Of a stretch of 64,000 bases of DNA, positions 693-59,578 are shown one piece after another (position 1 is the stretch's first letter; each line of letters begins with the position of its first letter). The DNA is from Minisyncoccota bacterium (GTDB lineage: Bacteria; Patescibacteriota; Minisyncoccia; Phycocordibacterales; UBA9973), in the NCBI GenBank assembly GCA_041666225.1, contig JBAYHJ010000002.1:23446-87445 (forward strand). Direction: 5' to 3'. The notes beneath the pieces were generated by a model, which had not been told where the DNA came from, did no database searches, and saw nothing but the letters and a program-made list of their open reading frames with translations. Position numbers and translations under genes: made by a program.

Positions 693-866
693 ATGGACGA
701 TGAACGAAATAAAGGCAAGGAGGATAATAAGACTAAATTAGATTCACTTTTTAGTCTTTTGAGTAAAAAAAACTCTATTATAAAAAAATATCGAAAGAAG
801 TTTGAGGACTTGAAAATCGGTCAAATTAGAAATGGCATAGATGGCAATAATTACAAAAATGAATGA
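693..866 (+). CDS. hypothetical 57-aa Lys-rich protein, possible leaderless first gene of the operon
   Basis: The ATG at 693 lies 8 nt after TATAAT (679-684). The ORF MDDERNKGKEDNKTKLDSLFSLLSKKNSIIKKYRKKFEDLKIGQIRNGIDGNNYKNE ends at TGA 864-866 and overlaps the start of the 1160-aa gene. It is below the track size cutoff. Confidence 0.3.
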   Translation: MDDERNKGKEDNKTKLDSLFSLLSKKNSIIKKYRKKFEDLKIGQIRNGIDGNNYKNE

Positions 867-3800
867 AAAACAGGAACAATTCAAACAATTAAGAGATTCT
901 CGTTTAGATAATGAGCGTTTATTGGAAGATAAAAAATCGCTTGAATTAAAAAAGGGCGAGATGAACAAAGAGGATTGGGAATTAAAAGCCAGGTCAATAG
1001 AAATTGAAATTCTAAAAACAAGAGGCGATATATATAAACTTGAGGAAACTTTGGGGTTAGATAAAAACGATCCCGAAGTTAAAAAAATAGAAGAAGAAGC
1101 TTTTACTGAAATTAATGAACTTGAAAAAGATTTTGAAAAAGTCATTGTAAGTGAAAGTACTGAAGATAAAGAATTTTTTGAAGAGATAGATGAATTAGCA
1201 AGTTGCATAAATAAGATAACAGATAAGGTTTATCAGAGGGGTTATTCTGTTGAGACACTTGAAAATCTAAGAAATTCTGAAAATATTAATGAAAAAGAAT
1301 TTTATAATGAAATAGAGTTAGATTTTGAAAAATTTAATGGGGACTCAAAAATAAAAAATTTAAAAGAGAAAAATTCAAATTTGATGCTTGACCTTCTGAT
1401 TCTAAAAATAAAAGATGAATATTTTAAAAATTATTTTTTAGTGGATTTTTCTGGTGATGAGAATATTCCACATTCTAAAATAGTTGATATTTTTATTCAT
1501 AATATTCCTAAAAATAAGGACACGAGGTCTTATAAAGATTTAGAGGACTCAGTTAATGATAGATTAACTAAGGAAAAAAGAAATGCACTTTTAAATCTTC
1601 CAGCAGAAGAAGTGCTTGATATTGTTTTAGATGATCCAGAAATATTATCTTCAGATTTAGAAAGAAATTTGTCATCAAAAGTATCAGATTTATGCCAATC
1701 ATATTTAAACGCAAATAATTTAAATGGAGTTAAAAGAATATTGGAGAAAATATTAAAAATTAAAGAGAATAAAGATATTAGTATTACTTCATTTTTACCC
1801 AAAATCAACACCTCACTTAATTTTAATGAGGAAGAAACAATTGCAATATTTTCAGGTGAAATGCCTGAATGGATTTTTGACAGATATTGTGATTCTATAA
1901 TTTGCAGTCCTTTCATTAGTTTGGTTCCTGAGAAATACATAAAAGAAAAATATTTTCATGGAGAAATTATTGTTGTATTTCCACTAACAAAAGAATCTAT
2001 AAAACAAGGTTTAGATAAAAATGGTTTAATTTTTTCAGATTTATCACCAGAAGAAAAAATTATTTGTTTAGAAAAAGGGGAAGATAATATGATTGATATT
2101 TTTTCAGTTGATGATTTAAAACAGATATTAAGTTTTGGAAAATATATTGATATAGATAAAATTCCAAAAAAATATCAGACTGAACTTAAGTATGATATAA
2201 TCGACAATTTATTCAATAATAGAAATTTAGACCATCTTGAGATTTTAAAGAAGGTATCTAAGGAATTAAACTTAAATTTTAAAGATTTATCAGATGAAAA
2301 AAACATTTCTATTTTAAATAAAATAAATTACAGCAGTGATATTGTTTCATTATTTGATCCACAAAATCTTAAAAGATTAATATTAAGAGAGGATTCTGAA
2401 TTTGAGAGTTCATATGGTTTAGAAAATTTGTTAAATATTACAGGATTAACTGTATCAGATTTTTCAGAAGCTAAACAAATCAAAATTTTTTATAAAGTTC
2501 GCTGGAGTGTAAATAAAATAAAAAATATATTTTCAATTGATGATTTACGTAAAATTGTAATAAATAAGGACATAAATCTTGATTTTGATAATATACCAAA
2601 TGAATATATTGATGGTCTAAGTAATGAAATAATCGAAATGCTGAGAAGAAAAGGAGACCTTTCTTTTGAAAAAAATAAAGTGACAAGGGAATGGTTTTTT
2701 GAAAAATTAAAAGAAAGAATAGAAAAAGATGATAATTTCGAAATTGAAAAAGATAGATATAAAAATCTTAAACGAATAAATAGAATTCAAGAATCTTTTT
2801 GGCTTTTAGATAGTCAAGAAAAATTGCCACCTCAAATAATTGAAAAATTTAATATTTTCAAAGAAAAATATGGGAAAAAGGGTGAGGGTTTAATTTCTCT
2901 TTCTATTGTGGCTCATGGGCTTGAAAATATTAATCAAACAGTCATAGAAATCGAAAAAATGGAACAAGTTATTGATTTATACGATAAAGAAAACATTCCA
3001 GAAGGGATGAGGGGTACATATGGTTTTGAATATGAAGTTGGTACAGAGCATGGTAAGTTATACGATGAAGAAAGTATATTAGGGTACGCGATTGAAGCAG
3101 AACTAATTGGAAGATCATCAAATATTAAACGAGGGGGTGGTGGTTCAGGTTCTATTTATGAACACTCAACTACTCCTACCGATAATCCATACATCGTCAT
3201 GGTTGAGATGGACTTACTTCAAAAAGCTAGAATGATTGACCCAAATGCAAAAGAATTTCCAGGTAGTTCGAGAGGGTACCATTTAAACCTCGGAGGAGAA
3301 AATGGTTTAACTTTATCTGAAAATATGTATTTTTTTGAAAATACGATGTATCTGACAGGGTTAAATAGTTTAAAAACAGGAATGGAAGTTAGTTCAATTA
3401 AAAATATACACCAAAAATTATTAGATAAAGTTTTTGAAAAAAAACAGGGTGGGGATAGGGTTGAAATAAAAAGCATGGGATTTGATTGTGTGGAACAATT
3501 TAATCGTGCTATTTTATCTGCTCACAATACTGTGATAGCGGTTCAGTTGGCAGAAAAATATCAACTAAATCCTTCTTTTGAAATATTAGAAAAATTACCT
3601 AATAATATTGAGGATTTTGATTCATTTCTTTTGTCTATTAATGACTTTGAGGAAAAAATATTTGATTCAGAACAAGAAAAGCAAATTGTTTATGCTTGGT
3701 TGAAGTTTAAAAAAGAAACATTTTTAGCAATAAAACAACACAATAACTCATTTGTTCAAAGTGAATTTGAAGGATCATTTTTTAATGAAAAAGGAGAATA

Positions 3801-4323
3801 TGTTGAGACTACTGAGAACATTGATTTGAAGGGGAACAATCAAACTATAAAAGATTTGGGTATTAATTTAAATTCAGGTGAATTTAAAAAAATTTATCAA
3901 ATTCCTGAAGATTGCTTAAATAGCGAAACATACACCAAAGAATTATCTAATTCATTAACTCGCGTGAATAATATATTTATATTTAAAGAACCAGTTTTAT
4001 CAGAAGGTAAATTTAGCGTTAACCCAATAACTAAGCAAAGACAATTAAAACCTGAACAGATAGCTAACGCGTATGCTTTCTTGACTGGAATGAGGGGGGA
4101 GGGTTACATAAAAGATATTCCAGGAAGTCCTTTTGATTCAATTATTGATACTGGGGGTAAAATTAGAGATGGATATTATTATGTTCAGAAGGCCTCAGAA
4201 GAAATGATTACTCATAAATCACAAATAATTTTAAATCGATTTAACAAAGAAATGGAGGAATTATTAACAAACTCAGTCGAAGAAGATGCGAATAAACAGA
4301 AACAATATGAAAGAGCAATATAG
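841..4323 (+). CDS. large hypothetical protein (1160 aa); Glu/Lys-rich coiled-coil N-terminus and an uncharacterised C-terminal region
   Basis: Long uninterrupted ORF. The first ~130 aa are E/K-rich heptad-like. The C-terminal part contains TYGFEYEVGTEHG, IKRGGGGSGSIYEHSTTPTDNPYIVMVEMD and RGYHLNLGGENG. I recognise no family with confidence. Confidence 0.7.
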   Translation: MAIITKMNEKQEQFKQLRDSRLDNERLLEDKKSLELKKGEMNKEDWELKARSIEIEILKTRGDIYKLEETLGLDKNDPEVKKIEEEAFTEINELEKDFEKVIVSESTEDKEFFEEIDELASCINKITDKVYQRGYSVETLENLRNSENINEKEFYNEIELDFEKFNGDSKIKNLKEKNSNLMLDLLILKIKDEYFKNYFLVDFSGDENIPHSKIVDIFIHNIPKNKDTRSYKDLEDSVNDRLTKEKRNALLNLPAEEVLDIVLDDPEILSSDLERNLSSKVSDLCQSYLNANNLNGVKRILEKILKIKENKDISITSFLPKINTSLNFNEEETIAIFSGEMPEWIFDRYCDSIICSPFISLVPEKYIKEKYFHGEIIVVFPLTKESIKQGLDKNGLIFSDLSPEEKIICLEKGEDNMIDIFSVDDLKQILSFGKYIDIDKIPKKYQTELKYDIIDNLFNNRNLDHLEILKKVSKELNLNFKDLSDEKNISILNKINYSSDIVSLFDPQNLKRLILREDSEFESSYGLENLLNITGLTVSDFSEAKQIKIFYKVRWSVNKIKNIFSIDDLRKIVINKDINLDFDNIPNEYIDGLSNEIIEMLRRKGDLSFEKNKVTREWFFEKLKERIEKDDNFEIEKDRYKNLKRINRIQESFWLLDSQEKLPPQIIEKFNIFKEKYGKKGEGLISLSIVAHGLENINQTVIEIEKMEQVIDLYDKENIPEGMRGTYGFEYEVGTEHGKLYDEESILGYAIEAELIGRSSNIKRGGGGSGSIYEHSTTPTDNPYIVMVEMDLLQKARMIDPNAKEFPGSSRGYHLNLGGENGLTLSENMYFFENTMYLTGLNSLKTGMEVSSIKNIHQKLLDKVFEKKQGGDRVEIKSMGFDCVEQFNRAILSAHNTVIAVQLAEKYQLNPSFEILEKLPNNIEDFDSFLLSINDFEEKIFDSEQEKQIVYAWLKFKKETFLAIKQHNNSFVQSEFEGSFFNEKGEYVETTENIDLKGNNQTIKDLGINLNSGEFKKIYQIPEDCLNSETYTKELSNSLTRVNNIFIFKEPVLSEGKFSVNPITKQRQLKPEQIANAYAFLTGMRGEGYIKDIPGSPFDSIIDTGGKIRDGYYYVQKASEEMITHKSQIILNRFNKEMEELLTNSVEEDANKQKQYERAI

Positions 4324-7075: not shown

Positions 7076-7101
7076 TCTAATTCTGATATAATAAAGTTAT
7101 T

Positions 7102-8112
7102 ATGGAAACATCAACACAAACACACTCATTAACACCAAAGTTTTTCTTTATTTCTCTAGGCGTCATTGTGACTCTCATTACTTCTGTGTCATCATTTTTA
7201 GTTTTATTATTTGAAACCCTGAATAAAAAATTTCCTGATGTTTTAAATGGAAATTATCAATATGGCTATAGTTCGTATAGTTATGATAATATCCGTGCAA
7301 CATTAGCGATTCTTATTATATTTTTCCCCATATTTTTAGTTTTGTCATATTTTTGGAAAAAGTTATCAAAATCAGAATTGGGAGCGAAGGATAATATAAT
7401 ATTTAAATGGATGATCTACTTAGTTATTTTTATTGCTAGTCTTGTTATCGCTATTGATTTAGTAACTCTTGTAAAATATTTTGTTTCCGGAGAGATTACG
7501 AATAGATTTGTGTTTAAGGTTTTAGGCACTGCTATTGTTGCTGGTTTGGCGGGGATTAACTATTTTTATGAATTAAAAAATCACGATAAATTAGAAATTA
7601 AAAGTAGGCTTCCTGTTTTATTGGCGATTAGTTCTTTGGTATTATTTTTGGCTTTGGTCATTTGGAGTTTTAATATTATGGGTAGTCCGAAAGAGCAACG
7701 CGCTTGGCGACTTGACGATAAGAGAGTTACAGATTTACAAAACATTCAATACCAAGTTATTAATTATTGGCAACAAAAGGAAAAATTACCAATTTCTTTA
7801 TCTGAATTATCAAATCCTATGACAGGATATTCCTTGCCTGTTGATCCAGAGTTTGAAAAGGGGAATAAATATGAATATATAGCTATAGATAAGATTAATT
7901 TCGAACTTTGTGCGACTTTTACATCTCCAATTCCTAAGGGATGGCAAGAAGATAGTTATAGAGGAATTATGTATGCAACAAAATCAGATATTGCTGTATC
8001 ATCTGCTCCATATCCAAGCGGTGGTGTTAATGATTCTTGGAGTCATGAATCTGGGAGAACTTGTTTTACTCGTAATATAGATAAGGATATATATCCACCG
8101 TTCAAAAATTAA
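7102..8112 (+). CDS. hypothetical integral membrane protein with a C-terminal soluble domain
   Basis: Several hydrophobic segments occupy the first 200 aa; the hydrophilic C-terminus is W/Y-rich. No confident family assignment. Confidence 0.6.
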   Translation: METSTQTHSLTPKFFFISLGVIVTLITSVSSFLVLLFETLNKKFPDVLNGNYQYGYSSYSYDNIRATLAILIIFFPIFLVLSYFWKKLSKSELGAKDNIIFKWMIYLVIFIASLVIAIDLVTLVKYFVSGEITNRFVFKVLGTAIVAGLAGINYFYELKNHDKLEIKSRLPVLLAISSLVLFLALVIWSFNIMGSPKEQRAWRLDDKRVTDLQNIQYQVINYWQQKEKLPISLSELSNPMTGYSLPVDPEFEKGNKYEYIAIDKINFELCATFTSPIPKGWQEDSYRGIMYATKSDIAVSSAPYPSGGVNDSWSHESGRTCFTRNIDKDIYPPFKN

Positions 8113-21750: not shown

Positions 21751-23985
21751 CTACGGCCTCTCGGACTTCGGCCATTCTTCAACCATTAATAATTTTTTGT
21801 TATCTATTGGCATCATACTCCAAATCTCTTCGGTGACGAATGGCATAAAAGGATGAAGTACTTTAAGAATTTTAACTAAAGTGTCAAATAAAAATTGTTC
21901 GCGGGATTCTTTCGCAATTTTGTCATTCCCAGAAAGTATTATTTTACTTTCTTCGATTATTACATCAGCGAATCGTGACCAAGTGTATTGATATATTTTT
22001 TCTCCAACTAAGTAGAATTTGTATTCATCCATTTCTTTAGTAATTTCTTTAATAAATTCATCTCGTTCTTTTATTAATTCTAGATCAACATTGGAGTAAT
22101 TATTAAAATTAGCATCATATTTTATGTTTGGTGTACTACTTAAAACAAAACGTGTTATATTCCAGAGTTTATTTGCATAATTCTTATAAGCTCTTATTTT
22201 ATCTTCAGACATTCTACTGTCATTTCCAGGGCCTGTACCTATAATGAGAGACATTCGTACTGCATCTGCTCCATATTTTTCACTTACTTCAAGTGGGTCA
22301 AGTGCGTTACCTAGAGATTTACTCATTTTTCGTCCCTGTCCATCACGAACTAATCCATGTAAGTATACATTTTTAAATGGAATTTCACCAAGTATGTAAG
22401 TACTCATCAATATCATTCTTGCAACCCAGAAGAAAAGTATATCGTACCCAGTTTCAAGTACGTCTGTTGGGTGATATGTTTTTAAATCTTTAGCTTCTAT
22501 ATTTGGCCAACCAAGAGTAGAAAATGTCCAAAGGCCTGAAGAAAACCAAGTATCAAGGGTATCAGGATCTTGTTCCCAATTTTCAATATCTTCAGGTGGA
22601 TTTATATTACAATATATTTCTGTATTATTTTCATTCGTAATTCCTAATTCGTAATTATTAATTGTTTTTCGATACCAAACTGGAATTCTATGCCCATACC
22701 ATATTTGACGAGAAATACACCAATCGTGAAGATTTTCTATCCAATTATAATAAACCCTTTCAAAATTATTTGGTATTATTTTTATTTCACCATTTTTAAC
22801 TGGCTCGAGCATTAATTCTTTAAGAGTTTTGTTATCACGGTCTTTTATTTGTTTATTAACATTTATAAACCACTGTAATTTTGGTAATGGTTCAATTATT
22901 CCTCCTGTTCGCTCTGCGGTGGAAACATTTTGAGATATTTCTTCTTCATTTTCTAAAAGATTTTCATTTTTTAACCACTCAACGATAGCTTCACGAGCGA
23001 TGGTTGTTTTTTTATCTAAAATTCTTTCATCACCAACAGTCATTTTTGCAAATTCATTTATTACTTGTTTGGTTGGAAGATTATGTCTTTGTGCAATCTC
23101 TGCATCTATTTGAGAATGAGCTGGTGTTACCCCTAGAGCACCAGTTCCGAAATCTTTTTCAACACTTTGATCCGCAATAATTTTTATTTCCAATTTAACT
23201 CCACAAAAATCATTAATTGTAAATGTTTTACCTATATAATCGCTGTAACGAGAATCTTCTGGGTGAACAGCGACTGCTGTATCTCCAACTTTTGTTTCTG
23301 GTCTTGTTGTTGATATTGAGATAGGGAAGTCTTTTGAGTATTTAAAAGTATACATTTTAGCTTTTCTTTCTTCGTAAACTATTTCATCATCAGAAATAAC
23401 TGTTTGACCTTTTGGATCCCAGTTTACAATACGGTGACCGCGATAAATAATTTCATCATCGTACATTTTTTTAAAAGCTGTACGGACAGCAAGATTTCTA
23501 TCTGCATCTAGTGTATAGGCTTCTCGTGACCAGTCTAAAGAAGAACCCATTTTTTTTGATTGATTGATTATTGTGTCGTGAGAATCTTGTGCGAACTTCT
23601 CAACTCTTTTCAAAAATTCTTCGCGACCAAGATCACTTTTTTTAATTCCTTCTTTTTCGAGATTTTTTTCAACTCTAGATTGAGTTGCAATTGCCGCATG
23701 GTCAGTACCAGGAAGCCAAAGAGTACGTTTGCCTTGCATGCGAGCATAGCGGATCATAATATCTTCTATTGTGAGCATAGCAGCGTGACCAATATGTAGA
23801 GTTCCAGTAACATTTGGGGGAGGAAGGACCATACAAAATGGTTCGGCATTTTTATCTGTAACTCCTTTTTCTATACAAACATCGGGATTAAAAAATCCAC
23901 TTTCTTCCCATATTTTATATATTTTATCTTCTGTTTCTTTTGGGTCGTAGGGTTTTAAAAATTTAGAGTTGATATCATTTTCCAT
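21751..23985 (-). CDS. valS: valyl-tRNA synthetase (short form, 744 aa, lacking the C-terminal coiled coil)
   Basis: PPPNVTGTLHIGHAAMLTIEDIMIRYARMQG (HIGH), KMSKSLGN, and the C-terminal EEWP motif followed shortly by a stop. Confidence 0.95.
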   Translation of the reverse strand: MENDINSKFLKPYDPKETEDKIYKIWEESGFFNPDVCIEKGVTDKNAEPFCMVLPPPNVTGTLHIGHAAMLTIEDIMIRYARMQGKRTLWLPGTDHAAIATQSRVEKNLEKEGIKKSDLGREEFLKRVEKFAQDSHDTIINQSKKMGSSLDWSREAYTLDADRNLAVRTAFKKMYDDEIIYRGHRIVNWDPKGQTVISDDEIVYEERKAKMYTFKYSKDFPISISTTRPETKVGDTAVAVHPEDSRYSDYIGKTFTINDFCGVKLEIKIIADQSVEKDFGTGALGVTPAHSQIDAEIAQRHNLPTKQVINEFAKMTVGDERILDKKTTIAREAIVEWLKNENLLENEEEISQNVSTAERTGGIIEPLPKLQWFINVNKQIKDRDNKTLKELMLEPVKNGEIKIIPNNFERVYYNWIENLHDWCISRQIWYGHRIPVWYRKTINNYELGITNENNTEIYCNINPPEDIENWEQDPDTLDTWFSSGLWTFSTLGWPNIEAKDLKTYHPTDVLETGYDILFFWVARMILMSTYILGEIPFKNVYLHGLVRDGQGRKMSKSLGNALDPLEVSEKYGADAVRMSLIIGTGPGNDSRMSEDKIRAYKNYANKLWNITRFVLSSTPNIKYDANFNNYSNVDLELIKERDEFIKEITKEMDEYKFYLVGEKIYQYTWSRFADVIIEESKIILSGNDKIAKESREQFLFDTLVKILKVLHPFMPFVTEEIWSMMPIDNKKLLMVEEWPKSERP

Positions 23986-33847: not shown

Positions 33848-34150
33848 TTACCCAAAAAAAATATTTTCCCCACCACCAGGATTGGGAGTACTTTCTGTGT
33901 ATCCATTTTGAAAAATTTCAGGATAGCCAAAATTTATTGGGCTAAGTTTAACGTTAATGCTACTTTCAGATTGATTAACCTCTATGAGATACGGTCTTTC
34001 AGAGAGAGCAATTTGGGTTTTTCCTTTGGTTGGCTCCGGGGTTTTTTGAGTTTCCATATTTATTTTTTTGAAAATTTGTACTATTTTATTGTTTATAATA
34101 ATAAAATATATATGACCAAATGTCAAATCTAATTCTTTTCGGTTATCCAC
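33848..34150 (-). CDS. hypothetical protein (69-100 aa), doubtful
   Basis: ORF with an internal METQKTPEP start and the C-terminal motif NPGGGENIFFG. Its 5' part overlaps the mraZ promoter region. No support other than ORF length. Confidence 0.25.
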   Translation of the reverse strand: MDNRKELDLTFGHIYFIIINNKIVQIFKKINMETQKTPEPTKGKTQIALSERPYLIEVNQSESSINVKLSPINFGYPEIFQNGYTESTPNPGGGENIFFG

Positions 34151-34158
34151 AGTTTAAA

Positions 34159-34259: not shown

Positions 34260-34703
34260 TTGATTATTATGCTCATAGGAGAATATACACACACATTAGA
34301 TGACAAGAATAGAATGTCACTACCCGTAAAGTTCCGAAAGGAGATGGGTAAGAGTGTTGTTGTTGCACCTGGGCTAGATAATTGTCTTGCAATTTATACT
34401 TCGCGAGAGTGGCAAAAGATTTCAGAAAAATTATCTGACTCCTCGATGCTAGCATCTGATAATAGAAGTTTCTCGAGATTTATGTTTGGTCAGGCTGTGA
34501 TTGTAGATGTAGATACAAATGGCCGAATACTAATCCCGGAAAATTTAAAAAATCGTTCAGGCCTCACTTCAAAGGTTGTTGTTATTGGAGTGCAAAACCG
34601 TGCAGAAATTTGGAATGAAAAAGCATGGAACGATTACAAGAAAGTAGTTGAAAAACAGGCAGACGCCCTCGCAGATAAATTGGGGCAGATAGGTGTTCTT
34701 TAA
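34260..34703 (+). CDS. mraZ: transcriptional regulator MraZ
   Basis: MLIGEYTHTLDDKNRMSLPVKFRKEMG ... second DxxxR repeat GRILIPENLKN; 147 aa. Confidence 0.9.
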   Translation: MIIMLIGEYTHTLDDKNRMSLPVKFRKEMGKSVVVAPGLDNCLAIYTSREWQKISEKLSDSSMLASDNRSFSRFMFGQAVIVDVDTNGRILIPENLKNRSGLTSKVVVIGVQNRAEIWNEKAWNDYKKVVEKQADALADKLGQIGVL

Positions 34704-35598
34704 TATGAAACATATTCCCGTATTACTAAACGAATCCATTGATGGTCTTTGTATAAAACCAGGCTATGTGATTGTTGATGGAACTCTGGGTGCAGGTGGT
34801 CACACATTAGAAATAATTCGTCGCTTTGGTAAAACTGTAAAAATTATTTGTTTAGATTTAGATTCCGATGCAGTAGCAAGAGCAAAAAAACTTATTGAAG
34901 AGACAGATGGAGATGTAATTTACAAGACAGAAGGTTTCCAAAATATTGATAAAATTCTCAACGAATTAAAGATAGAAAAAGTAAATGGCATATTGCTTGA
35001 TTTGGGGATTAGCTCGTTTCAATTAGAAGAAGGAGAAAGGGGATTCACGTTTACAAAAGATGAACCATTGCTCATGACACTAAAGCGAAATCCAGGTGGT
35101 AATGATATTACAGCTTACTCAATCGTAAATACATGGAGCGAAGAAACGATAGCAGATATAATTTATGGTTTTGGAGAAGAAAGATATTCACGCAAGATCG
35201 CAAAAGCTATCGTCGAAGCAAGGTTAGAAAAAGAGATAAAGACAACTCTTGAACTGGTTGCAATTATAGATAAAACTGTTGGTAAATTCTATAAAGGTAA
35301 AAAAATAAATCCTGCCACAAAAACTTTCCAAGCTCTGCGGATTGCGACCAATAGTGAATTGTCAAATTTAGAAGAAGTAATACAAAAAGGTTTTAAAAGG
35401 TTATCAGTTGGAGGACATATGGCAATCATTAGTTTTCATAGTTTAGAAGATCGAATCGTAAAAAAAGCATTTGTAGATTTAAAAGAAAAAAGATTAGGAG
35501 ATGTTATAACCAAAAAACCAATAGTTCCAAGTATAAATGAGATAAAATCAAATCCACGTTCACGAAGTTCAAAATTAAGATTATTAAAAAAATTATAA
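34693..35598 (+). CDS. rsmH: 16S rRNA (cytosine1402-N4)-methyltransferase RsmH (MraW)
   Basis: HIPVLLNESIDGL...VDGTLGAGGHT and the SAM-MTase fold; the start is probably MKHIPV at 34705. Confidence 0.9.
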   Translation: MFFNMKHIPVLLNESIDGLCIKPGYVIVDGTLGAGGHTLEIIRRFGKTVKIICLDLDSDAVARAKKLIEETDGDVIYKTEGFQNIDKILNELKIEKVNGILLDLGISSFQLEEGERGFTFTKDEPLLMTLKRNPGGNDITAYSIVNTWSEETIADIIYGFGEERYSRKIAKAIVEARLEKEIKTTLELVAIIDKTVGKFYKGKKINPATKTFQALRIATNSELSNLEEVIQKGFKRLSVGGHMAIISFHSLEDRIVKKAFVDLKEKRLGDVITKKPIVPSINEIKSNPRSRSSKLRLLKKL

Positions 35599-41261: not shown

Positions 41262-41421
41262 AAGGATAATTACTAATTAATAATTAGAAATTAAAAATTT
41301 AAAAGACAATACTAATACAAAAGCATACTCTAAAAATAACAGAATATTGGCTATTTTACAAGGGCTTTTAATAATAAAGATAAGAATATATTCAAATATT
41401 AATATATGTTATAATCATCTT

Positions 41422-52470: not shown

Positions 52471-53265
52471 TTAACCAATTTTAGTTGTATTAATATGTTG
52501 CTCAGCGACCAAAGAAATTTTTTCCATCATCGAAATTGCTTCTACTGGATATTTTCCTTTTGCCGATTCTTCTGAAAGCATAACTCCATCGGCGCCATCT
52601 AGTATTGCATATGCAACATCCGATACTTCTGCTCGAGTAGGAATTGGATTATCAACCATTGAGAGTAACATTTGAGTAGCAACAATAACCATTTTACCAG
52701 CTTTTTTGCATTCTTCTATTATATAGTGTTGAACAAAAGGAATTTTTTCAAGTGGGAATTCATTGCCCAAGTCGCCACGTGCAACCATTATTGCATCAGT
52801 TTCTTTTATAATTTCATCAAGGTTTTCTACTGCTAATTGACGTTCAATTTTTGCAATTACTTTTTGATTACCCCCTTTTTCTTTTATAAGTTTTTTTAAT
52901 TGGATAATATCTGAAGCTTTTCCAACAAAAGACAATGCGATATAATCAACATTTTGTTTAATTCCAAAATCTAAATTCTCAATATCTTTTTCTGTTATTA
53001 CGTCTTGTTCTTCTTCTCCGCCATAATGATGCCCATCATCATCTTGGACTCGTGGCCCAGATAAATCTTGGATTATCTCTATATTTTTATTTTGCTCTTT
53101 AGCAGAATCTCTTATATTTTTAATAACTTCTGTAAACCATTCATAATTGCCCCAAGAGAAATTTAAACGAGCAATATCCATATGGTGTTCTATCATTTTT
53201 GAAATAATTTCTTTACCCTCACTTGCTGGTCCTATCGTTGCGATAATTTTTGTTTCAGATTCCAT
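52471..53265 (-). CDS. pyk: pyruvate kinase, barrel domain only (264 aa; C-terminal regulatory domain absent)
   Basis: [11 protein letters not shown], the [11 protein letters not shown] region, ARGDLG and [12 protein letters not shown] are all PK signatures. Confidence 0.75.
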
Positions 53266-53295: not shown

Positions 53296-54525
53296 TTAAC
53301 TTAGGTGGCTTGTTATTTTAATAATTCTTTCATACTTAACATCTCTTTCTTTTGGGCCAAGTGCTCCAGCTTTAATTCCAAAACATCCATATGCACAGAC
53401 CAAATCAGCAATAAAGTCATCCATAGTTTCTCCACTTCTGTGACTTACAACACAATCAATGTTATTATCTCGCGCCATTTTCATTGTAGAAAGAGTTTCT
53501 GTAAGTGTCCCAATTTGGTTTGGTTTTATGAGTATACATTTAATACTTTTCTTATCAATTGCTATTTGTAATCTTTCAATATTTGTGACAGTTAAATCAT
53601 CTCCGATTACTTTAATATCCCCAATTTTTTCTTGTAGTTTAGTAAAGCCATCGAAATCTTCTTCGTCCAGCGGGTCTTCTATTGAAAGCATTGGGAATTC
53701 ATTACAGATTTTTTCATATAGCTCTATCATTTCATCTGTTGACCAAGTCTTATTCATAAATTTATAAATTCCTAAATCATGATCATAAAATGAACTAGCG
53801 GCAACATCGAGAGCAAATTTTATTTTATCAAAATAACCCAATTCTTCCACTGCTTTTTTCATTAAATTAAGTGGTGTCATAATATCATCTACATCAAGAG
53901 CAACCCCACCTTCATCACCTTTTATAACAGCCCCAAATTCACTTTCTAACATCTCATCTAATCTTTTTTGAATGTTGCGACTTATTTCTACACTTTCAAC
54001 AGATGTTTCAACTTGAGGAACAATATGAAATTCTTGAAAAGCTAAACGTGTAGCAGCGTGTTTCCCTCCATTGATTAAATTAAAATATAAAAATGGTTGA
54101 TTTCTAGATGGTTTTATTTCTGCTAATGTTCTTAAATATTCATAAACTTCCATATTTAATACCTTAGCTGCAGTTTTAGCACAAGCAATACTGACCCCAA
54201 TTAAACTATTACCTCCAAGATTTGTCTTTTGATGAGTTCCATCTAGTTTAATCATTATCTCATCAATTTGTTTTTGCTTATCGACTTCGATTCCAATTAA
54301 GGCATTTTTGATTTCAGTATTAATTTTATTAACTGCGTTTAAAACTCCGCTTTTTCCACCTAAAGCATCACGAAGTTCGCAGGCCTCATATTTTCCAGTA
54401 CTTGCTCCTGATGGAACGTCAAAACTTCCTACTATATCACCAACATAAACAGAAACCCTGAGAGTCGGATTTTTACGTGAATCTAATATTTGCTCGGCTT
54501 GTATGTTTGTGATCTTTTTATCCAT
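53296..54525 (-). CDS. eno: enolase
   Basis: ITNIQAEQILDSRKNPTLRVSV ... SGASTGKYEA, with metal/substrate ligands in the ILIKPNQIGTLTET and SHRSGET motifs. Confidence 0.95.
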   Translation of the reverse strand: MDKKITNIQAEQILDSRKNPTLRVSVYVGDIVGSFDVPSGASTGKYEACELRDALGGKSGVLNAVNKINTEIKNALIGIEVDKQKQIDEIMIKLDGTHQKTNLGGNSLIGVSIACAKTAAKVLNMEVYEYLRTLAEIKPSRNQPFLYFNLINGGKHAATRLAFQEFHIVPQVETSVESVEISRNIQKRLDEMLESEFGAVIKGDEGGVALDVDDIMTPLNLMKKAVEELGYFDKIKFALDVAASSFYDHDLGIYKFMNKTWSTDEMIELYEKICNEFPMLSIEDPLDEEDFDGFTKLQEKIGDIKVIGDDLTVTNIERLQIAIDKKSIKCILIKPNQIGTLTETLSTMKMARDNNIDCVVSHRSGETMDDFIADLVCAYGCFGIKAGALGPKERDVKYERIIKITSHLS

Positions 54526-54593
54526 GTATTTATATTCTAATGATAATTATGCTTGTATTATATAATAAATATAGTTATTTTCCAATAATTAAA

Positions 54594-54623
54594 AATACCT
54601 CACACAAATGAGGTATTTTTAAT
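54594..54623. terminator. intrinsic terminator, minus-strand sense, for the 22-aa ORF
   Basis: AAAAATACCTCA-CACAAA-TGAGGTATTTTT. Confidence 0.55.
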
Positions 54624-54627
54624 AGAT

Positions 54628-54696
54628 TTATTTCTTGGGTGCTTTAACTTTCTTTGGTTTTTTTACTTCTTTTCTGTGCCCATCTCCTTTTGCCAT
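54628..54696 (-). CDS. putative 22-aa ultra-basic peptide (MAKGDGHRKEVKKPKKVKAPKK); possibly a bTHX-like small ribosomal protein
   Basis: ATG..TAA ORF immediately followed by a dedicated terminator hairpin. MAKGD-basic resembles the MGKGD start of Thx that I recall. Below the ORF-track cutoff. Confidence 0.3.
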   Translation of the reverse strand: MAKGDGHRKEVKKPKKVKAPKK

Positions 54697-54873
54697 ATAG
54701 TTTTTAACGCGAAACAAATTATTTTATAAAAAAATGTCTTCCTTTTCCCTCATACAGTTTTTTTAGAATATAATTTGTGAAGCTTCTTATTAATAATATT
54801 TTATATTATAACATAATTAAAATATTTTTAAAAATATTTGCCTATATTATTATCTCTTTGATATAATAGATGG

Positions 54874-55038
54874 ATGGATGATGAAAATGAAAAAATTGAA
54901 GAAACATCAAAAGATCCCGTTTGCCCTCGTTGTGGACTACGTTCTTATGATAGCGTCTGCCAAGCTTGCGGTACCCCAATCGTTGATAAAAAAGACGATG
55001 AAGAGGAAGACTATGATTGGCGAGAAAAACACCGATAA
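54874..55038 (+). CDS. 54-aa zinc-ribbon protein (double CxxC)
   Basis: MDDENEKIEETSKDPVCPRCGLRSYDSVCQACGTPIVDKKDDEEEDYDWREKHR. TATAAT at 54862-54867 lies 6 nt before the ATG (leaderless-like). A terminator hairpin overlaps the stop. The two track ORFs in this interval are alternative frames of the same DNA. Confidence 0.5.
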   Translation: MDDENEKIEETSKDPVCPRCGLRSYDSVCQACGTPIVDKKDDEEEDYDWREKHR

Positions 55039-55057
55039 AAGTTTTGTCGGTGTTTTT
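55027..55057. terminator. bidirectional terminator between the zinc-ribbon gene (+) and the 55062..55853 gene (-)
   Basis: ACACCGA-TAAAAGTTTTG-TCGGTGTTTTT. Confidence 0.6.
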
Positions 55058-55061
55058 AAAT

Positions 55062-55853
55062 TTATTTAACCACTTCAAATTTTGTGACTTTAACACTTTG
55101 CGGATTTTTGGTGTATGTATAAATTATGTTAGCTTTACTTTGAATATGTCCGTCTTCATATGTGGCTTCTGCTGTATGAGTAGCAGGATTTACTGATACA
55201 GATATTACATACCACTCACCTCCTAGTACTGGCTTGTTTATGGCGAGAGTTTTTATATTGTCGCGGATATATTTTTCTGTAAATAATTTTTCATCAAGTG
55301 TATCACAATCCATTTGGCTCATTGCTTTAATATAATAAAGATTTGTTTTGTCTTTATAAACGTAAACTCCATCCCCTCTATCTACCATTTCTCCAAAACC
55401 AACTGTGGCACTACCATCTCCAAATTGAATCGCAAGTTCTTCTTTTACTTCCATTCCTTCAGCCCTTGAATCCCACCAAACACTTGCCTTCCTTGCCATA
55501 ATTTTTTGATCAAGTGGTCCAACTGTTCCCTCAAATTTTCCAACTTTTGAATCGGATTCAGCTGGGAGGTTTTGGAATTCTCCTGTTACTTTATCATTTA
55601 CACTTCCGTTAGTATTTATTTTAAGCCAAGCTACCTCATAGAAACCACTTGTCATTTTTTCTCCCCTATAGTAACAAAGACTGATTGGTTTTTGATCTTC
55701 TTCTTTTGGTTTATCGATTGTATCTATTTGTTCATCTGGAATTAGAACCACAGGAGTTTCTTTTTTATAATAAATACTAAAAACTACTCCACCAACGATT
55801 AGTATAATAAGCGCTATTAAAATTATTTGTTTGATTTTATATTTATTTTCCAT
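55062..55853 (-). CDS. hypothetical membrane-anchored extracytoplasmic protein (263 aa)
   Basis: N-terminal TM helix followed by a beta-rich soluble domain; last gene of the lexA-helicase transcription unit. Confidence 0.55.
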   Translation of the reverse strand: MENKYKIKQIILIALIILIVGGVVFSIYYKKETPVVLIPDEQIDTIDKPKEEDQKPISLCYYRGEKMTSGFYEVAWLKINTNGSVNDKVTGEFQNLPAESDSKVGKFEGTVGPLDQKIMARKASVWWDSRAEGMEVKEELAIQFGDGSATVGFGEMVDRGDGVYVYKDKTNLYYIKAMSQMDCDTLDEKLFTEKYIRDNIKTLAINKPVLGGEWYVISVSVNPATHTAEATYEDGHIQSKANIIYTYTKNPQSVKVTKFEVVK

Positions 55854-55886
55854 AGTTTAATTATAGCACTTTATGAAAGACGCTAC

Positions 55887-57608
55887 TCATATAAATAATT
55901 TTGCAATCCTAATCTCTTCAAAAGAGAGATTAGCCCCTTCTTTATCTAGAATAGTTTTAAGAGGGCTTAGTTTACCCTTATCATCCCCTTTCAATTGATT
56001 ATTTGCTTTTCTAACTAATTCTAAATTTTTCTTTGTTGGTTGCTCTATGTGCTTGAGATTGATATTTTTATCTATTTCTTTTAATTCTTCTATATGACTG
56101 ACTATCGTTCCAAATACTAAACCTCTCTCTTTGGCGATAGTCTTAATATTTTTACCGCTATCCAATAATTCTTTTGTAATTTGGATTGAAGGAATTTTTG
56201 TGTCTTTTATCTTTGTTTTAATATTTTTTTTAGTACCAATTTTAATATTACCCCCCATTTTATTAATAAAATCTTCTTCTAGCTTATTTTGCTCAGTATC
56301 ACTTAATTTTTTAAATAATAATTCATTATTAAAACTCTGGTTTTTTAGGTCTTGATCAAACTCTAAAATAGCAGGGTCAACCATAAGTGAGTCATTGTTA
56401 AAACCTACCAAACTAATCCCCTCTAGCGTTCTAACTCGTGATAATGCCACATAACCCATTCCGTACGAAAAAGTCCTCGACAGGTCGATTAGAGCGTTAT
56501 CTAGAGACATTCCTTGGCTCTTGTGGATGGTTATCGCCCATGCAAGACGAAGTGGAATTTGGGAAAGTGAAGCCTTGATTTTACCATCTTCTTCTATTGC
56601 CCATATCTCAGGTTTCAGGTCTATTTTCTTACCATTGTAAAGCTCAACTATTGGGTTGCCATTTTCTTTAATAAAACCAATAACCTTACCGCGTGAACCA
56701 TTTACATACCCTTCTTCAAAATTATTTTTAATACACATCACTTCTGCTCCGATTTTTAATTTTAATTTTTCATGAGCAAGGCAACTTTTTTTTAAAATAT
56801 CAACCAACATCTCTGGACCTTGTGTTGTCATTTGGCATACTCTCTCATCTTCATTGATTAATGAAAGTTCAATATTATTTATATCATCTACGTTTATATT
56901 GTGAGTATAGAGTTTTGTGGCTTTTACTCCGTCTTTCAATTTAGCTCCCACTCTACTTCGTAATAATTCGAAATGTTTTTCCTCAATGGAGTTTGTACGA
57001 ATTGTATTTAAAATCTCAGTTAGATCATTATCATCTTGACGATGCTGTTCTTCCAAATAACAAATAGCAGGATTTAGTATTTGCCAAGAGGTACTATTAA
57101 AAATCATTGGTGAGCCATAAGTCGGACTTAGGGCTGGATCATTTGCCCTAAGTCCGACATAGGGCGCTTTTTCTATTGGTGGTAATTGAAAAAAGTCCCC
57201 GGAAAGGATTACTTGCAATCCCCCGAAGGGTTTATTGTTCCTTTTGAATCTTTGGCAGACTTTTTCGATCATATCGAGTTGTGAAGCGTGAAGCATTGAG
57301 ACTTCATCAATTATCAAAACACGTGCCTTCTCGAATCTTTTCCAAAGATATTTTTTTTCTTCCAATTGCTCTAAACCTTTTTCGTCTAAAAAATTACGAA
57401 TACCGATTCCTGACCAAGAGTGAATTGTCATACCGTTCATGTGAGTTGCGGCAATTCCTGTTGAAGCAGTGACTGCACAAGCGATATCATGCTCGTCTAG
57501 ATATGAAATATATTTGTTTAATAAAAAAGTCTTTCCACTACCAGCACTACCGGTTAGATATATATTTACCCCGGTTTTCATTATTTTCAAAGCCTGTTCT
57601 TGAGTCAT
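55887..57608 (-). CDS. Pif1/RecD-family ATP-dependent DNA helicase with a C-terminal HTH
   Basis: Walker A LTGSAGSGKTF, Walker B LIIDEVSM, QLPPI motif III-like segment and ITIHKSQGMS; the C-terminal GKNIKTIAKERGLVFGTIVSHIEEL is HTH-like. Confidence 0.8.
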   Translation of the reverse strand: MTQEQALKIMKTGVNIYLTGSAGSGKTFLLNKYISYLDEHDIACAVTASTGIAATHMNGMTIHSWSGIGIRNFLDEKGLEQLEEKKYLWKRFEKARVLIIDEVSMLHASQLDMIEKVCQRFKRNNKPFGGLQVILSGDFFQLPPIEKAPYVGLRANDPALSPTYGSPMIFNSTSWQILNPAICYLEEQHRQDDNDLTEILNTIRTNSIEEKHFELLRSRVGAKLKDGVKATKLYTHNINVDDINNIELSLINEDERVCQMTTQGPEMLVDILKKSCLAHEKLKLKIGAEVMCIKNNFEEGYVNGSRGKVIGFIKENGNPIVELYNGKKIDLKPEIWAIEEDGKIKASLSQIPLRLAWAITIHKSQGMSLDNALIDLSRTFSYGMGYVALSRVRTLEGISLVGFNNDSLMVDPAILEFDQDLKNQSFNNELLFKKLSDTEQNKLEEDFINKMGGNIKIGTKKNIKTKIKDTKIPSIQITKELLDSGKNIKTIAKERGLVFGTIVSHIEELKEIDKNINLKHIEQPTKKNLELVRKANNQLKGDDKGKLSPLKTILDKEGANLSFEEIRIAKLFI

Positions 57609-57625
57609 AGAAACTTATTATACCA

Positions 57626-58192
57626 TTAGTATTTTCTAATGACAGCTTTTACAACAGCGATAATATTTAAATATATTTTAGGGTGTATGGGTTTGAAGTC
57701 TTTATTGGCAGGTATGAGCCAAACTTTGTCACCATCTTTTTTAAAATATTTCATTGTAAACTCTCCATCAACATTGGCGATAACTATTTGCCCATCTTTT
57801 GCTTGATTTGTTTTCTCTACTAGTATCATATCTCCATCCGCAATATGAGCATCGATCATAGAGTCACCATCTACAGTGAGCATATATGAGTTCTCTTTTT
57901 TATTAATTAAATATTCATCGATATTTATAGTATCAGTTAATTCTTCTGTTACATCAGCAGGAAAACCGGCTTTCACAGAGCCAAGCATTGGGATAGAAGA
58001 CAATGATATATCAGCAACAAGCCGACCAAGATGATCTTTGGCGACTATTCCTTCTTCTATGAATTTATCAACAAGTCGAGCTACTGCATTTTTGGATTTG
58101 AAACCAAATAAGCTCATCATCTCTCTGTATGTCGGCATGCGATTATCTTTGTTGTAAAATCGAATGAGTTTTTCTTTGTAATTATTATACAT
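57626..58192 (-). CDS. lexA: LexA repressor (S24 peptidase)
   Basis: N-terminal winged HTH, Ala-Gly cleavage site in LGSVKAGFP, and Ser/Lys dyad context VDGDSMIDA ... TMKYFKK; 188 aa. Confidence 0.85.
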   Translation of the reverse strand: MYNNYKEKLIRFYNKDNRMPTYREMMSLFGFKSKNAVARLVDKFIEEGIVAKDHLGRLVADISLSSIPMLGSVKAGFPADVTEELTDTINIDEYLINKKENSYMLTVDGDSMIDAHIADGDMILVEKTNQAKDGQIVIANVDGEFTMKYFKKDGDKVWLIPANKDFKPIHPKIYLNIIAVVKAVIRKY

Positions 58193-58210
58193 ATAACTTA
58201 CTTTATTATA

Positions 58211-58423
58211 TTAGATATTAGAAAATTGTGGAAATCTATTTAGTGAATTAAGAAAGTGTCCCCAGAAACCCTTTCTTTTGTGTTGACGAATTTTATGAAG
58301 AAGTTGTTTGTGCTCACGAGCTTCTTTTGAATAATCAATCCCTTTGATTATTTTGTCATCAATTTTTTTATTGATGTTGTGAATCTCACGTTCTATAATT
58401 TTTAAATATTGTTCTCTACTCAT
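58211..58423 (-). CDS. hypothetical small basic protein (70 aa), first gene of the lexA operon
   Basis: Only 18 nt separate it from lexA on the same strand; a Cheo-type box/promoter lies ~40 nt upstream of its start. Confidence 0.5.
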   Translation of the reverse strand: MSREQYLKIIEREIHNINKKIDDKIIKGIDYSKEAREHKQLLHKIRQHKRKGFWGHFLNSLNRFPQFSNI

Positions 58424-58459
58424 AAATATATATAATTACTATTAATTAACTACATTTAT

Positions 58460-58489
58460 AGTATATGTGAACGCTCGTTCACTGTCAAG
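58460..58489 (-). promoter_or_regulatory. promoter TTGACA-17-TATACT whose spacer is a Cheo-type SOS box GTGAACGAGCGTTCAC (GAAC-N4-GTTC)
   Basis: The minus strand reads TTGACA GTGAACGAGCGTTCACA TATACT. The 16-bp palindrome at 58467-58482 fits the Gram-positive-type LexA operator consensus CGAAC-N4-GTTCG. Confidence 0.6.
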
Positions 58490-58549
58490 AAAATACCTGT
58501 GGATAACCACCACATCCAAAAGAGAAATTAGAGATTTGTTTTCTTTAAT

Positions 58550-59578
58550 TTAATTCTGTACCCAACCTGTAAATTTGAAAGTTTTAATTAGGTTTTCAAG
58601 TCCAACCGTATTTGTTCCACCAAACTCATATCCTACATTACCTTTTTTAAACCAATAAAAAGTAGCTCCGCTGTATGTATAAACTTTAAAAGTAGTCTCT
58701 CCAATTTTTTGGTCTTTTACATATGTATAACTAGAAATAGTAGATTTCTCCCAAAAAGAAGAATCTGTTACATAACCAAGACTTCCGACGGGCATAGAAA
58801 TTCTTATAATCGGTCCAGTTGTTAGTTGTTCTTCTTTCGGAATAAATCCTTTTGGTAATTCAATAGTGAATCCATGATTTTGATAAGTAATTGAATTAGA
58901 ATTTAACTCTGATTGATCAGTGTTATATTTTGTATCCCCTACTGGAATTTGTTTTTCTTTTATTAAATTATTTTCTTCAAAACAAAAAGTGTCCGCGTTA
59001 ACAATTGATTGGTATCTTGAAGTTGTTATTGATTCTGTGCTTCCCGCTGAGTCTACACAAAAATAATCATAACCATAATAACGATCATCTTTTTTAGGTT
59101 TTTTCTTTAACTCTGCAGCTAAAACAAAACTATCATTATCACTAAAGCATTTAGTTTTAACTTCTATTTCATTAATTTTATTTAACAATTCCGCAACAAT
59201 TTTATCTTCGCATGCATTTGAATATGAATTATTAGAATCAAAATTATATTGAATTTGTGCACGCGCATTTGCTAAATTGGCTTTTATCATTCGATTTACT
59301 GATGGATTGAAATCATTTCCATGTGTATACATCCAAACTGCTAAAATCAAAGTTGGCAAACTCAATATTATTAATATCAGAGCAATTGATTTTTGTTTAT
59401 TAATTTTAGTAAATCCTACTATAAGAGATACTATATTTATTATAATAAATAATAATATATAACCACCACCTCCCGTATCATTAGCAATAAAACCACCGGA
59501 GATAAAAGCATTAATATAAACAAAATCTGAAATGATTAAAAAAAATATTAATATACCATAAATTATTTTATTTTTCAT
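58550..59578 (-). CDS. hypothetical membrane protein with an extracytoplasmic C-terminal domain (342 aa)
   Basis: Three N-terminal TM helices with a GGGG segment, then a Cys-containing soluble domain. Promoter GTGACT-17-TATAAT at 59585-59613 with the ATG 6 nt after the -10 (leaderless). Confidence 0.55.
   Translation of the reverse strand: MKNKIIYGILIFFLIISDFVYINAFISGGFIANDTGGGGYILLFIIINIVSLIVGFTKINKQKSIALILIILSLPTLILAVWMYTHGNDFNPSVNRMIKANLANARAQIQYNFDSNNSYSNACEDKIVAELLNKINEIEVKTKCFSDNDSFVLAAELKKKPKKDDRYYGYDYFCVDSAGSTESITTSRYQSIVNADTFCFEENNLIKEKQIPVGDTKYNTDQSELNSNSITYQNHGFTIELPKGFIPKEEQLTTGPIIRISMPVGSLGYVTDSSFWEKSTISSYTYVKDQKIGETTFKVYTYSGATFYWFKKGNVGYEFGGTNTVGLENLIKTFKFTGWVQN

Follow-up and report, generated by a model that had tools for sequence, protein, structure and literature searches.

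Introduction

The Cheo box at lexA (dinR) of Bacillus subtilis and in Gram-positive bacteria has the consensus CGAAC-N4-GTTCG. In Escherichia coli, the gene behind lexA, dinF, encodes a membrane protein and is damage-inducible without an operator of its own, and arrangements that join lexA to dinB have been reported in Geobacter. The E. coli SOS promoters of uvrB, recN, and dinJ are jointly controlled by DnaA and LexA (PMC6015884). For the Patescibacteria, the SOS network was the subject of a comparative genomics study in 2017 (Sanchez-Osuna, Barbe & Erill, Environ Microbiol), as cited in PMC8565304 and PMC7739468; the citing text of the latter places it among examples of LexA having evolved to direct-repeat motifs. 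Here we describe a lexA locus on a 64,000-nucleotide (nt) stretch of DNA from a Minisyncoccota bacterium (contig JBAYHJ010000002.1 of assembly GCA_041666225.1, forward-strand positions 23,446 to 87,445), the whole of which we refer to as the window. On its minus strand, a small open reading frame (ORF), lexA, a pif1 helicase gene, and a gene for a membrane-anchored protein follow one another (Table 1). We consider it likely that this is a self-repressing SOS locus of Candidatus Paceibacterota with a small ORF-lexA core, in which pif1 and the membrane-protein gene are cargo and a DnaA-type site provides a second input.

For comparison we used about 120 related Paceibacterota loci (numbered with an L below), from relatives named Nomurabacteria, Paceibacteria, or Minisyncoccia. 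These include 34 species-level genome loci gathered by LexA alignment (L001-L034) and 80 metagenome loci gathered by Pif1 alignment, and among the latter the linkage between lexA and pif1 was counted on the 65 that have at least 700 nt of upstream sequence.

A LexA repressor and its predicted operator

The 188-amino-acid (aa) product of lexA is predicted to be a true LexA repressor. It scored 136.2 bits against the TIGR00498 equivalog model (cutoff 110.95, residues 14-187), matched Peptidase_S24 of Pfam at 5e-32, and aligned along its full length with the solved LexA of 3K2Z, 1JHH, and 7B5G. In the alignment with E. coli LexA, VKAG-FP falls on the cleavage site VAAG-EP, GDSM on GMSM, and FTMK on VTVK. 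The residues concerned, A75-G76 of the Ala-Gly site and S111 and K148 of the Ser/Lys dyad, are invariant among 18 relatives. The initial annotation had made its reading depend on the catalytic Ser and Lys of the S24 domain, and both are present, as is the Ala-Gly site. At the other end of the protein, residues 10-65 align with the N-terminal domains of 3K2Z and 1JHH; in Pfam there is only a weak match to HTH_28, and LexA_DNA_bind is absent at E<=0.01.

Upstream of the small ORF lies the arrangement TTGACA-17 nt-TATACT, which agrees with the consensus at 11 of 12 positions and was the top-scoring sigma70-like promoter in a promoter scan of positions 54700-58800. Its 17-nt spacer holds the Cheo-type SOS box GAACGAGCGTTC, and the palindrome as a whole, GTGAACGAGCGTTCAC, is 16 bp long, with arms that reach past the GAAC-N4-GTTC core. 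The initial annotation had seen in this promoter, and in the palindrome within its spacer, the classic arrangement of an autoregulated lexA. Our analysis agrees on both counts, as all of these elements are present on the minus strand and a Cheo-type operator is conserved in the spacer at the readable lexA promoters of relatives. Among the 34 genome loci, the operator stands between the -35 and the -10 at every readable lexA promoter: 31 are exact matches to GAAC-N4-GTTC, two have one mismatch, and in one the contig is cut. The operator was also found in 17 metagenome loci with the promoter on the contig and in three more distant loci, one of them with one mismatch, and the consensus for the family is GTGAACGNNCGTTCAC.

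The GAAC-N4-GTTC core alone is unremarkable in the window, with one occurrence against 0.48 expected and at least one in 39 of 100 shuffles. For the 6+6 palindrome, about 0.0015 occurrences per window are expected from base composition. In 1.06 Mb of DNA, comprising the window and 114 related loci, the full palindrome has 49 copies, and all copies whose position was checked lie at lexA-operon promoters; the other 12 GAAC-N4-GTTC matches in this DNA are at chance level (5-15 in shuffles). One could still argue that the palindrome is there by chance, or that it is the site of another regulator, such as the small basic protein, rather than that of LexA. The frequency of the core in the window, the lack of a second site by which a regulon could be defined, and the co-transcribed small protein, which is very basic and could bind DNA, would all fit with this. 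We nevertheless find such an origin very unlikely. In ~50 loci whose flanks diverge, the 16 bp are conserved at one and the same place in the promoter, except for the central NN, which is free; the half-site is the GAAC/GTTC core known from LexA boxes in Gram-positive bacteria, and the palindrome always precedes a gene for a complete LexA.

From the position of the operator and its conservation, we infer that LexA binds to its own promoter. In the mechanism that we propose, a LexA dimer would bind the 16-bp palindrome in the spacer of the near-consensus sigma70 promoter and block RNA polymerase, and LexA would therefore repress its own transcription unit. Upon DNA damage, RecA-stimulated self-cleavage of LexA at Ala75-Gly76, carried out by Ser111/Lys148, would lift this repression.

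The small ORF as a partner of lexA

The conserved transcription unit would consist of the small ORF and lexA, with the small ORF always the first gene. It lies directly 5' of lexA in 34 of 34 genome loci, with 36-87% identity, and a profile search for the family returned 318 cluster representatives at E<=1e-3, all of them 42-136 aa long. Five distant members were looked up, of which four directly precede a Peptidase_S24 gene and the fifth is on too short a contig. The promoters of three distant members again contain an operator and a -10, as well as the DnaA-box-like site TTATCCACA that is described below. We found no operator between the small ORF and lexA in any of the 34 genome loci, even at gaps of 214-221 nt, and autoregulation of lexA would therefore depend on co-transcription of both genes. 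The predicted conserved module begins with the TTATCCACA box and continues through the promoter and operator to the small ORF and lexA. The small ORF and the box are the invariant partners of lexA, and this had been overlooked in the initial annotation.

The small protein has an isoelectric point of 9.8-11.4, a net charge of about +8, an amphipathic aromatic tail, and no transmembrane (TM) segment. AlphaFold2 (AF2) modelled it as a two-helix hairpin with a predicted local distance difference test score (pLDDT) of 83. Searches of Pfam, NCBIfam, PHROG, PADLOC, and PDB folds gave no match above noise, and a Foldseek search of the model against PDB returned generic helical hairpins only (best E 2.2). 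A similarity to DUF496/TmaR (E about 1e-3, far below cutoffs) was rejected as coiled-coil noise. On one short contig (L122, positions 1-330), a member of the small-ORF family lies 3' of the end of lexA (...AVVKAVIRKY and stop) and not 5' of lexA, an arrangement that may represent a tandem duplication of the small ORF/lexA pair.

A DnaA-box-like site at the lexA promoter

The second partner of lexA is the TTATCCACA site, which lies 5' of the -35 hexamer. Of the 33 related loci that could be read in front of the lexA promoter, 25 have the exact 9-mer there and seven have it with one or two mismatches, always in one orientation. It is also present in the distant loci L121, L124, and L125, and only seven exact copies occur elsewhere in the remaining ~425 kb of the related loci. 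The genes on its upstream side are not the same from locus to locus, and the site can therefore be assigned to the lexA promoter. We infer that DnaA may bind here, and the site would probably let DnaA, or another factor, modulate the same promoter that LexA is predicted to repress.

Within the window, TTATCCACA has three exact copies against 0.9 expected. The second (34143) is part of the 12-mer GGTTATCCACAG (34141-34152), which lies upstream of mraZ (34260-34703) and rsmH (34693-35598) and about 45 nt upstream of the extended -10 TGTATAAT that precedes the mraZ-rsmH-ftsI-mur division/cell-wall cluster. Between GGTTATCCACAG and TGTATAAT there are GTGGGA repeats, which by our own reading resemble MraZ sites. 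The third copy is inside a small ORF and is probably there by chance. With the lexA and mraZ copies, two of the three exact boxes in the window are therefore at promoters.

Other elements around the promoter were considered as well. A hairpin that looked terminator-like in the scan, TGTGGTGGTTATCCACA, was rejected, as only its TTATCCACA part is kept in relatives, and an Rfam search of positions 54500-59000 gave no RNA family match at E<=0.1. In several relatives, the AT-rich leader of the lexA operon holds GC-rich palindromic insertions (CCCTAG...CTAGGG-like or GGGGAGG/CCTCCCC) between the -10 and the small ORF (L001 at ~7715-7745, L004 at ~7715-7750, L019 at ~7700-7760, L025, and L033). With these insertions the ATG lies about 65-95 nt from the promoter, as compared to about 35 nt otherwise.

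Pif1 and other cargo behind lexA

The helicase encoded behind lexA is, by sequence, a true Pif1-family enzyme. It has Pfam matches to PIF1 (1.9e-33), Pif1_2B_dom (1.2e-10), and HTH_40 (1.7e-12), and its top PDB matches are all Pif1, eukaryotic as well as from Bacteroides (7OTJ at 7.7e-69, 6HPT, 5O6B, and 5FHD), with E-values to solved Pif1 chains of 1e-33 to 8e-69. Across 16 orthologues there is no change in Walker A (GSAGSGKT), Walker B (DEVSM), PFGGLQVILSGDFFQLPP, HKSQG, or YVALSR, and the Pif1 signature region, which lies between motif II and motif III, aligns with solved Pif1. A Pif1-family helicase with a C-terminal helix-turn-helix, 17 nt after lexA, and a membrane-anchored protein behind it had already been recognized from the initial reading of the locus, and our searches bear out both. 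The window copy of pif1 also contains an inverted repeat directly after helicase motif III, with the in-frame translation VGLRANDPALSPTYG. This palindromic insertion, of 15 aa, is not in the nearest orthologues; scattered others have similar peptides (VGLxxx...SPTxG) at the same spot, and the repeat behaves as a small palindromic element with in-frame insertion would.

The membrane-anchored protein has one TM segment at residues 10-28 (Kyte-Doolittle 3.0), which is modelled as part of a helix from residue 2 to 29. The AF2 model, made with no alignment, is confident for this helix only (pLDDT 39 overall) and otherwise unusable. Searches of Pfam, NCBIfam, PHROGs, PADLOC, and PDB sequences gave no family or PDB match for this protein. 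In some relatives the membrane gene is also found 3' of pif1, both with and without lexA there.

The initial annotation had suggested that the synteny of lexA and pif1 be examined in relatives, and it turned out not to be conserved. Among the 34 genome loci, pif1 comes directly after lexA in nine, namely those with the most similar LexA, and lexA is directly upstream of pif1 in 24 of the 65 metagenome loci, with gaps of 4-82 nt. The 41 unlinked loci include orthologues that are 74-78% identical to the window helicase. None of the 41 has an operator within 300 nt upstream of pif1 (the best match has at least 4 mismatches in 12), nor is there one anywhere else in these loci, which were covered to as much as 5 kb on either side. 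In L031, pif1 lies 4.4 kb from lexA on the other strand and has no box. LexA regulation is not conserved among the pif1 orthologues. On a neighbour-joining tree of Pif1, which is indicative only, lexA-adjacent and non-adjacent cases are interspersed and the deepest branches are non-adjacent. The distribution of the lexA-pif1 junction suggests one gain and many losses.

In other relatives the place behind lexA is taken by other genes. IMS/DinB, a Y-family polymerase, follows lexA after 19 nt in L017 and after 6 nt in L021, and in L012 an S51 peptidase gene stands between lexA and DinB. In L005 the order is lexA, pif1, a gene for a DNA-binding protein of MGMT type, and DinB, with gaps of 5 nt between pif1 and the MGMT-type gene and 4 nt between the latter and DinB. 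In L123, a uracil-DNA glycosylase (UDG) comes after lexA, and several relatives have unrelated or convergent genes there. The slot behind lexA is repeatedly filled by DNA-damage genes, an observation in favour of functional read-through of transcripts that start at the SOS promoter. In this clade, genes for repair proteins (Pif1, DinB, an alkyltransferase-like protein (ATL), and UDG) appear to join the SOS response by placement behind lexA and not through operators of their own. In this scheme, pif1 and the membrane gene of the window would be lineage-specific cargo.

Probable internal promoters and possible LexA control of pif1

Two extended -10 elements lie within the gene cluster. The first, TGGTATAAT, is in the gap between lexA and pif1 and is probably pif1's own promoter, of a leaderless type, and the second, TGCTATAAT, is probably the membrane gene's own promoter. 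The sequence TGnTAnnnT, ending 3-12 nt before the ATG, is found in 63% of 73 pif1 orthologues as compared to 20% of 244 control starts, and among the orthologues it is present regardless of upstream lexA. At the 244 control gene starts, the -10 distance peaks sharply at 6 nt and Shine-Dalgarno-like motifs amount to 3.7%, which suggests that leaderless mRNAs are widespread in this lineage. Extended -10 elements of the form TGnTAnAAT also occur 6-9 nt before starts at 54859-54867, 7084-7092, and 41407-41415 of the window and in loci L035-L114. A literature search returned nothing relevant on Pif1 in Patescibacteria, on Parcubacteria LexA, or on leaderless transcripts in Patescibacteria or the candidate phyla radiation.

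Neither a terminator scan nor an inverted-repeat search found a terminator between the four genes, and read-through from the SOS promoter is therefore expected. Under the proposed mechanism, TGnTATAAT promoters at leaderless distance would give pif1 and the membrane gene an expression independent of LexA, and transcripts from the SOS promoter would read through and add a damage-inducible component to both. Since 41 of 65 pif1 orthologues are without an operator and pif1 has a probable promoter of its own, LexA control of Pif1 would be at most this added read-through. The LexA-controlled Pif1 of the initial annotation can therefore be kept only in part: read-through is to be expected in the absence of an internal terminator, but the link to lexA is not a conserved one and pif1 comes with an extended -10 element of its own. 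As far as can be told from sequence, the lexA-pif1 pair is a clade-restricted and frequently lost juxtaposition of genes with independent promoters. The cluster most likely consists of three nested transcription units, namely a LexA-repressed read-through unit, one from the pif1 promoter, and one from the membrane-gene promoter.

A stricter alternative is that all four genes form a single LexA-repressed operon, in which Pif1, together with the membrane protein, is a dedicated damage-induced effector without meaningful expression of its own. The genes are indeed tightly spaced, with gaps of 18 nt between the small ORF and lexA, 17 nt between lexA and pif1, and 33 nt between pif1 and the membrane gene, no internal terminator interrupts them, and the adjacency of lexA and pif1 is recurrent in nine genome and 24 metagenome loci. 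Furthermore, pif1 lies between lexA and repair genes (ATL, DinB) in L005 and L084, with gaps of 4-5 nt, and damage-inducible dinB in these loci would require transcription through pif1. We nevertheless consider a strict operon unlikely, because the 41 loci with neither lexA nor an operator upstream include such close orthologues, because TGnTATAAT, at 5-9 nt from the pif1 ATG, is conserved irrespective of whether lexA is upstream and another copy precedes the membrane gene, and because the Pif1 tree has lexA-adjacent cases scattered among the non-adjacent ones.

A number of observations weigh against our preferred interpretation, a self-repressing small ORF-lexA core with loosely attached cargo and a DnaA-type input. 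A second operator beyond chance was not found in the window or in the 1.06 Mb of related DNA, and a wider SOS regulon is at most putative. A scan with a position-specific scoring matrix built from 34 related sites gave no further operator of at least 8 bits in the window, as in 20 shuffles, and none of at least 0 bits elsewhere in the window. Degenerate versions of the operator were at or below chance there (24 observed, 33 expected), and no operator boxes lie upstream of repair genes within the window. recA was not found in the DNA examined with an approximate E. coli RecA sequence as query. A single DnaA box is a weak DnaA target in model organisms, and the distance between TTATCCACA and the operator is variable (7-8, 14-16, or 25-26 nt), with no clean helical repeat; helical phasing of the box was rejected, as these values form no clean 10.5-nt series. 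Finally, TAnnnT occurs at 3-12 nt in 60% of control gene starts in this genome of 31% GC, and because such sequences are common, part of the internal -10 signal could be compositional, although the TG-extended form is far less common in controls than at pif1. If, on the other hand, the internal promoters are strong, the SOS share of pif1 expression may be negligible.

Genomic context

The neighbours of the locus in the window are tRNA synthetases of the Leu/Ile-Val/Lys type, MurJ, LepA, TsaD, Mur ligases, two penicillin-binding proteins (PBPs), MraZ-RsmH, MgsA, and enolase, and the GC content is even across the region at about 31%. The window is ordinary chromosome, and nothing in it points to a prophage or island. 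This bears on the idea, raised in the initial annotation, that the helicase could have a defence or anti-plasmid function. In its wider form, the helicase and membrane protein would be a defence, anti-plasmid, or mobile module that is near lexA by chance, or that is under a phage-type CI/LexA-like repressor. Several defence systems do include superfamily 1 (SF1) helicases, the helicase partially matches PDC-S68, RecD_like, and typeIV_RecD in PADLOC and also matches a PHROG family of Dda-like helicases, and the S24 domain matches phage repressor families. However, PADLOC and PHROGs searches with the four genes and three upstream ORFs gave only generic helicase and S24 matches. The PADLOC matches of the helicase are confined to a generic helicase core within proteins of much greater length, and the other genes have none, except for one marginal, sub-threshold match of the lexA winged helix. 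The repressor is above the LexA equivalog cutoff, and viral contigs hold only six distant Pif1 cores (36-51% identity), with close orthologues absent. Together with the housekeeping neighbours, the flat GC content, and the vertical inheritance of the locus across many species-level genomes, this makes a defence or mobile module extremely unlikely, and we have rejected it.

At its 3' end the lexA operon shares a terminator with a convergent gene for a zinc-ribbon protein. The start of the latter reads TGATATAAT-6 nt-ATG, and the gene stays near the locus in L001, L003, L004, and L006. The ORF that adjoins enolase (52471-53265, minus strand, 264 aa) reads by eye like the N-terminal barrel of pyruvate kinase, and homologues of 261-266 aa recur in L004 and L006. 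An ORF of 1160 aa at 841-4323 on the plus strand has no Pfam match at E<=1e-5.

Table 1. Coordinates of genes and sequence elements at the lexA locus, numbered from the first letter of the window (a point stands for features without a strand).
Feature	Position	Strand	Description
TTATCCACA site	58498..58506	-	Identical to the consensus DnaA box; 9 nt upstream of the -35 hexamer
-35 hexamer TTGACA	58483..58488	-	From promoter scan; TTGACA, TTGACT, or TTGCAT at the same position in relatives
Predicted LexA operator GTGAACGAGCGTTCAC	58467..58482	-	Fills the promoter spacer; GAAC-N4-GTTC core, 6-nt arms, 4-nt centre
-10 hexamer TATACT	58460..58465	-	TATACT or TATAAT directly 3' of the operator in relatives
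Small ORF, 70 aa	58211..58423	-	First gene of the putative LexA-repressed unit; very basic helical hairpin; annotated as hypothetical
lexA, 188 aa	57626..58192	-	Putative N-terminal winged-helix domain; S24 autopeptidase domain
Extended -10 TGGTATAAT	57617..57625	-	In the 17-nt lexA-pif1 gap, 8 nt before the pif1 ATG
pif1, 573 aa	55887..57608	-	Pif1-family SF1B helicase; 2B domain and C-terminal HTH_40 domain
Inverted repeat in pif1, 21 nt, GC-rich	57114..57165	.	In-frame translation VGLRANDPALSPTYG; directly after helicase motif III
Extended -10 TGCTATAAT	55860..55868	-	6 nt before the ATG of the membrane gene
Membrane-anchored protein gene, 263 aa	55062..55853	-	One N-terminal TM helix; beta-rich outer part
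Bidirectional intrinsic terminator	55025..55057	.	15-pair stem with T-runs on both sides; also found as inverted repeat
Zinc-ribbon protein gene, 54 aa	54874-55038	+	Converges on the operon

Implications

Much of bacterial diversity falls within the Patescibacteria, whose genomes are tiny. Nearly all of them are uncultivated, and what is known of their stress responses comes from sequence only. The locus described here is probably an ordinary self-repressing SOS switch to which pif1 and the membrane gene are loosely attached as passengers. The link between Pif1 and lexA is weaker than it first appeared. The more novel leads are the basic protein encoded by the small ORF, which always goes with lexA, the box of DnaA type at the promoter of the repressor, and the swapping of cargo. 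Because Pif1 is found with DinB, an alkyltransferase-like protein, and lexA, the link is still one of the few contextual hints on what bacterial Pif1 does in vivo. A literature search returned no paper linking bacterial Pif1 to LexA, with the 2017 Patescibacteria SOS study outside its reach. The family consensus GTGAACGNNCGTTCAC gives a clean and strongly conserved operator that can be used for whole-genome scans in this clade. The locus also gives evidence that SOS in this clade may amount to little more than one self-contained operon in which the repair cargo can be swapped. The small basic protein and the DnaA-type box, if real, would connect DNA damage with the state of replication, and possibly with cell division, in a minimal cell.

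It is intriguing to consider that the locus is a three-part SOS switch that would be new relative to model bacteria, in which the small protein works in the response, the DnaA box couples the level of LexA to replication initiation, and the regulon grows by the stacking of genes behind lexA, which would make Pif1 a true damage-inducible helicase in lineages that have it there. We offer this as a tentative proposal and think it somewhat unlikely that all of it holds. If it does, the small protein could either act together with LexA and tune its binding or cleavage, or be a damage-induced effector such as a division or replication brake. The level of LexA would be tied to the status of replication initiation, and the same box also precedes the mraZ cell-division cluster.

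Comparison with known systems

The closest counterpart of the core is lexA (dinR) of B. subtilis, where a GAAC-N4-GTTC palindrome likewise overlaps the lexA promoter and the gene represses itself, as is predicted here. The proteins are also alike in their S24 domain, Ala-Gly site, and Ser/Lys dyad, and probably in an N-terminal winged-helix domain, which here is putative. The boxes differ in their flanks, which are T/A here (GTGAAC...GTTCAC) and not C/G, and in their centre, which is G-NN-C and not AT-rich. In addition, the operator of the Paceibacterota locus lies exactly in the spacer between -35 and -10, lexA is the second gene after a conserved small ORF, and the promoter comes with a TTATCCACA box. 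The motif described here is a palindrome, unlike the direct-repeat LexA motifs among whose examples the 2017 study is listed in the citing text of PMC7739468.

With regard to the genes behind lexA, the locus resembles E. coli lexA-dinF in that a membrane protein is part of the cargo. In contrast to lexA-dinF and lexA-dinB, the cargo here is a Pif1 helicase and a membrane-anchored protein, each with its own promoter-like element, and it varies between close relatives (Pif1, DinB, ATL, and UDG). The helicase shares its core, the signature region (PFGGLQ..GDFFQLPP), and the 2B/SH3 domain with yeast and human PIF1 and with Bacteroides Pif1 (5FHD/5FTB), and it differs from them by an extra C-terminal HTH_40 domain and, in this copy, by the palindromic in-frame insertion after motif III. 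The DnaA-type site finds its nearest likeness at E. coli uvrB, recN, and dinJ, where a consensus DnaA box adjoins the LexA box at an SOS promoter (PMC6015884). In the Paceibacterota locus, however, there is one predicted box, placed 5' of the -35 and clear of the LexA box, and it is found at the promoter of lexA itself, where it would therefore set the level of the repressor.

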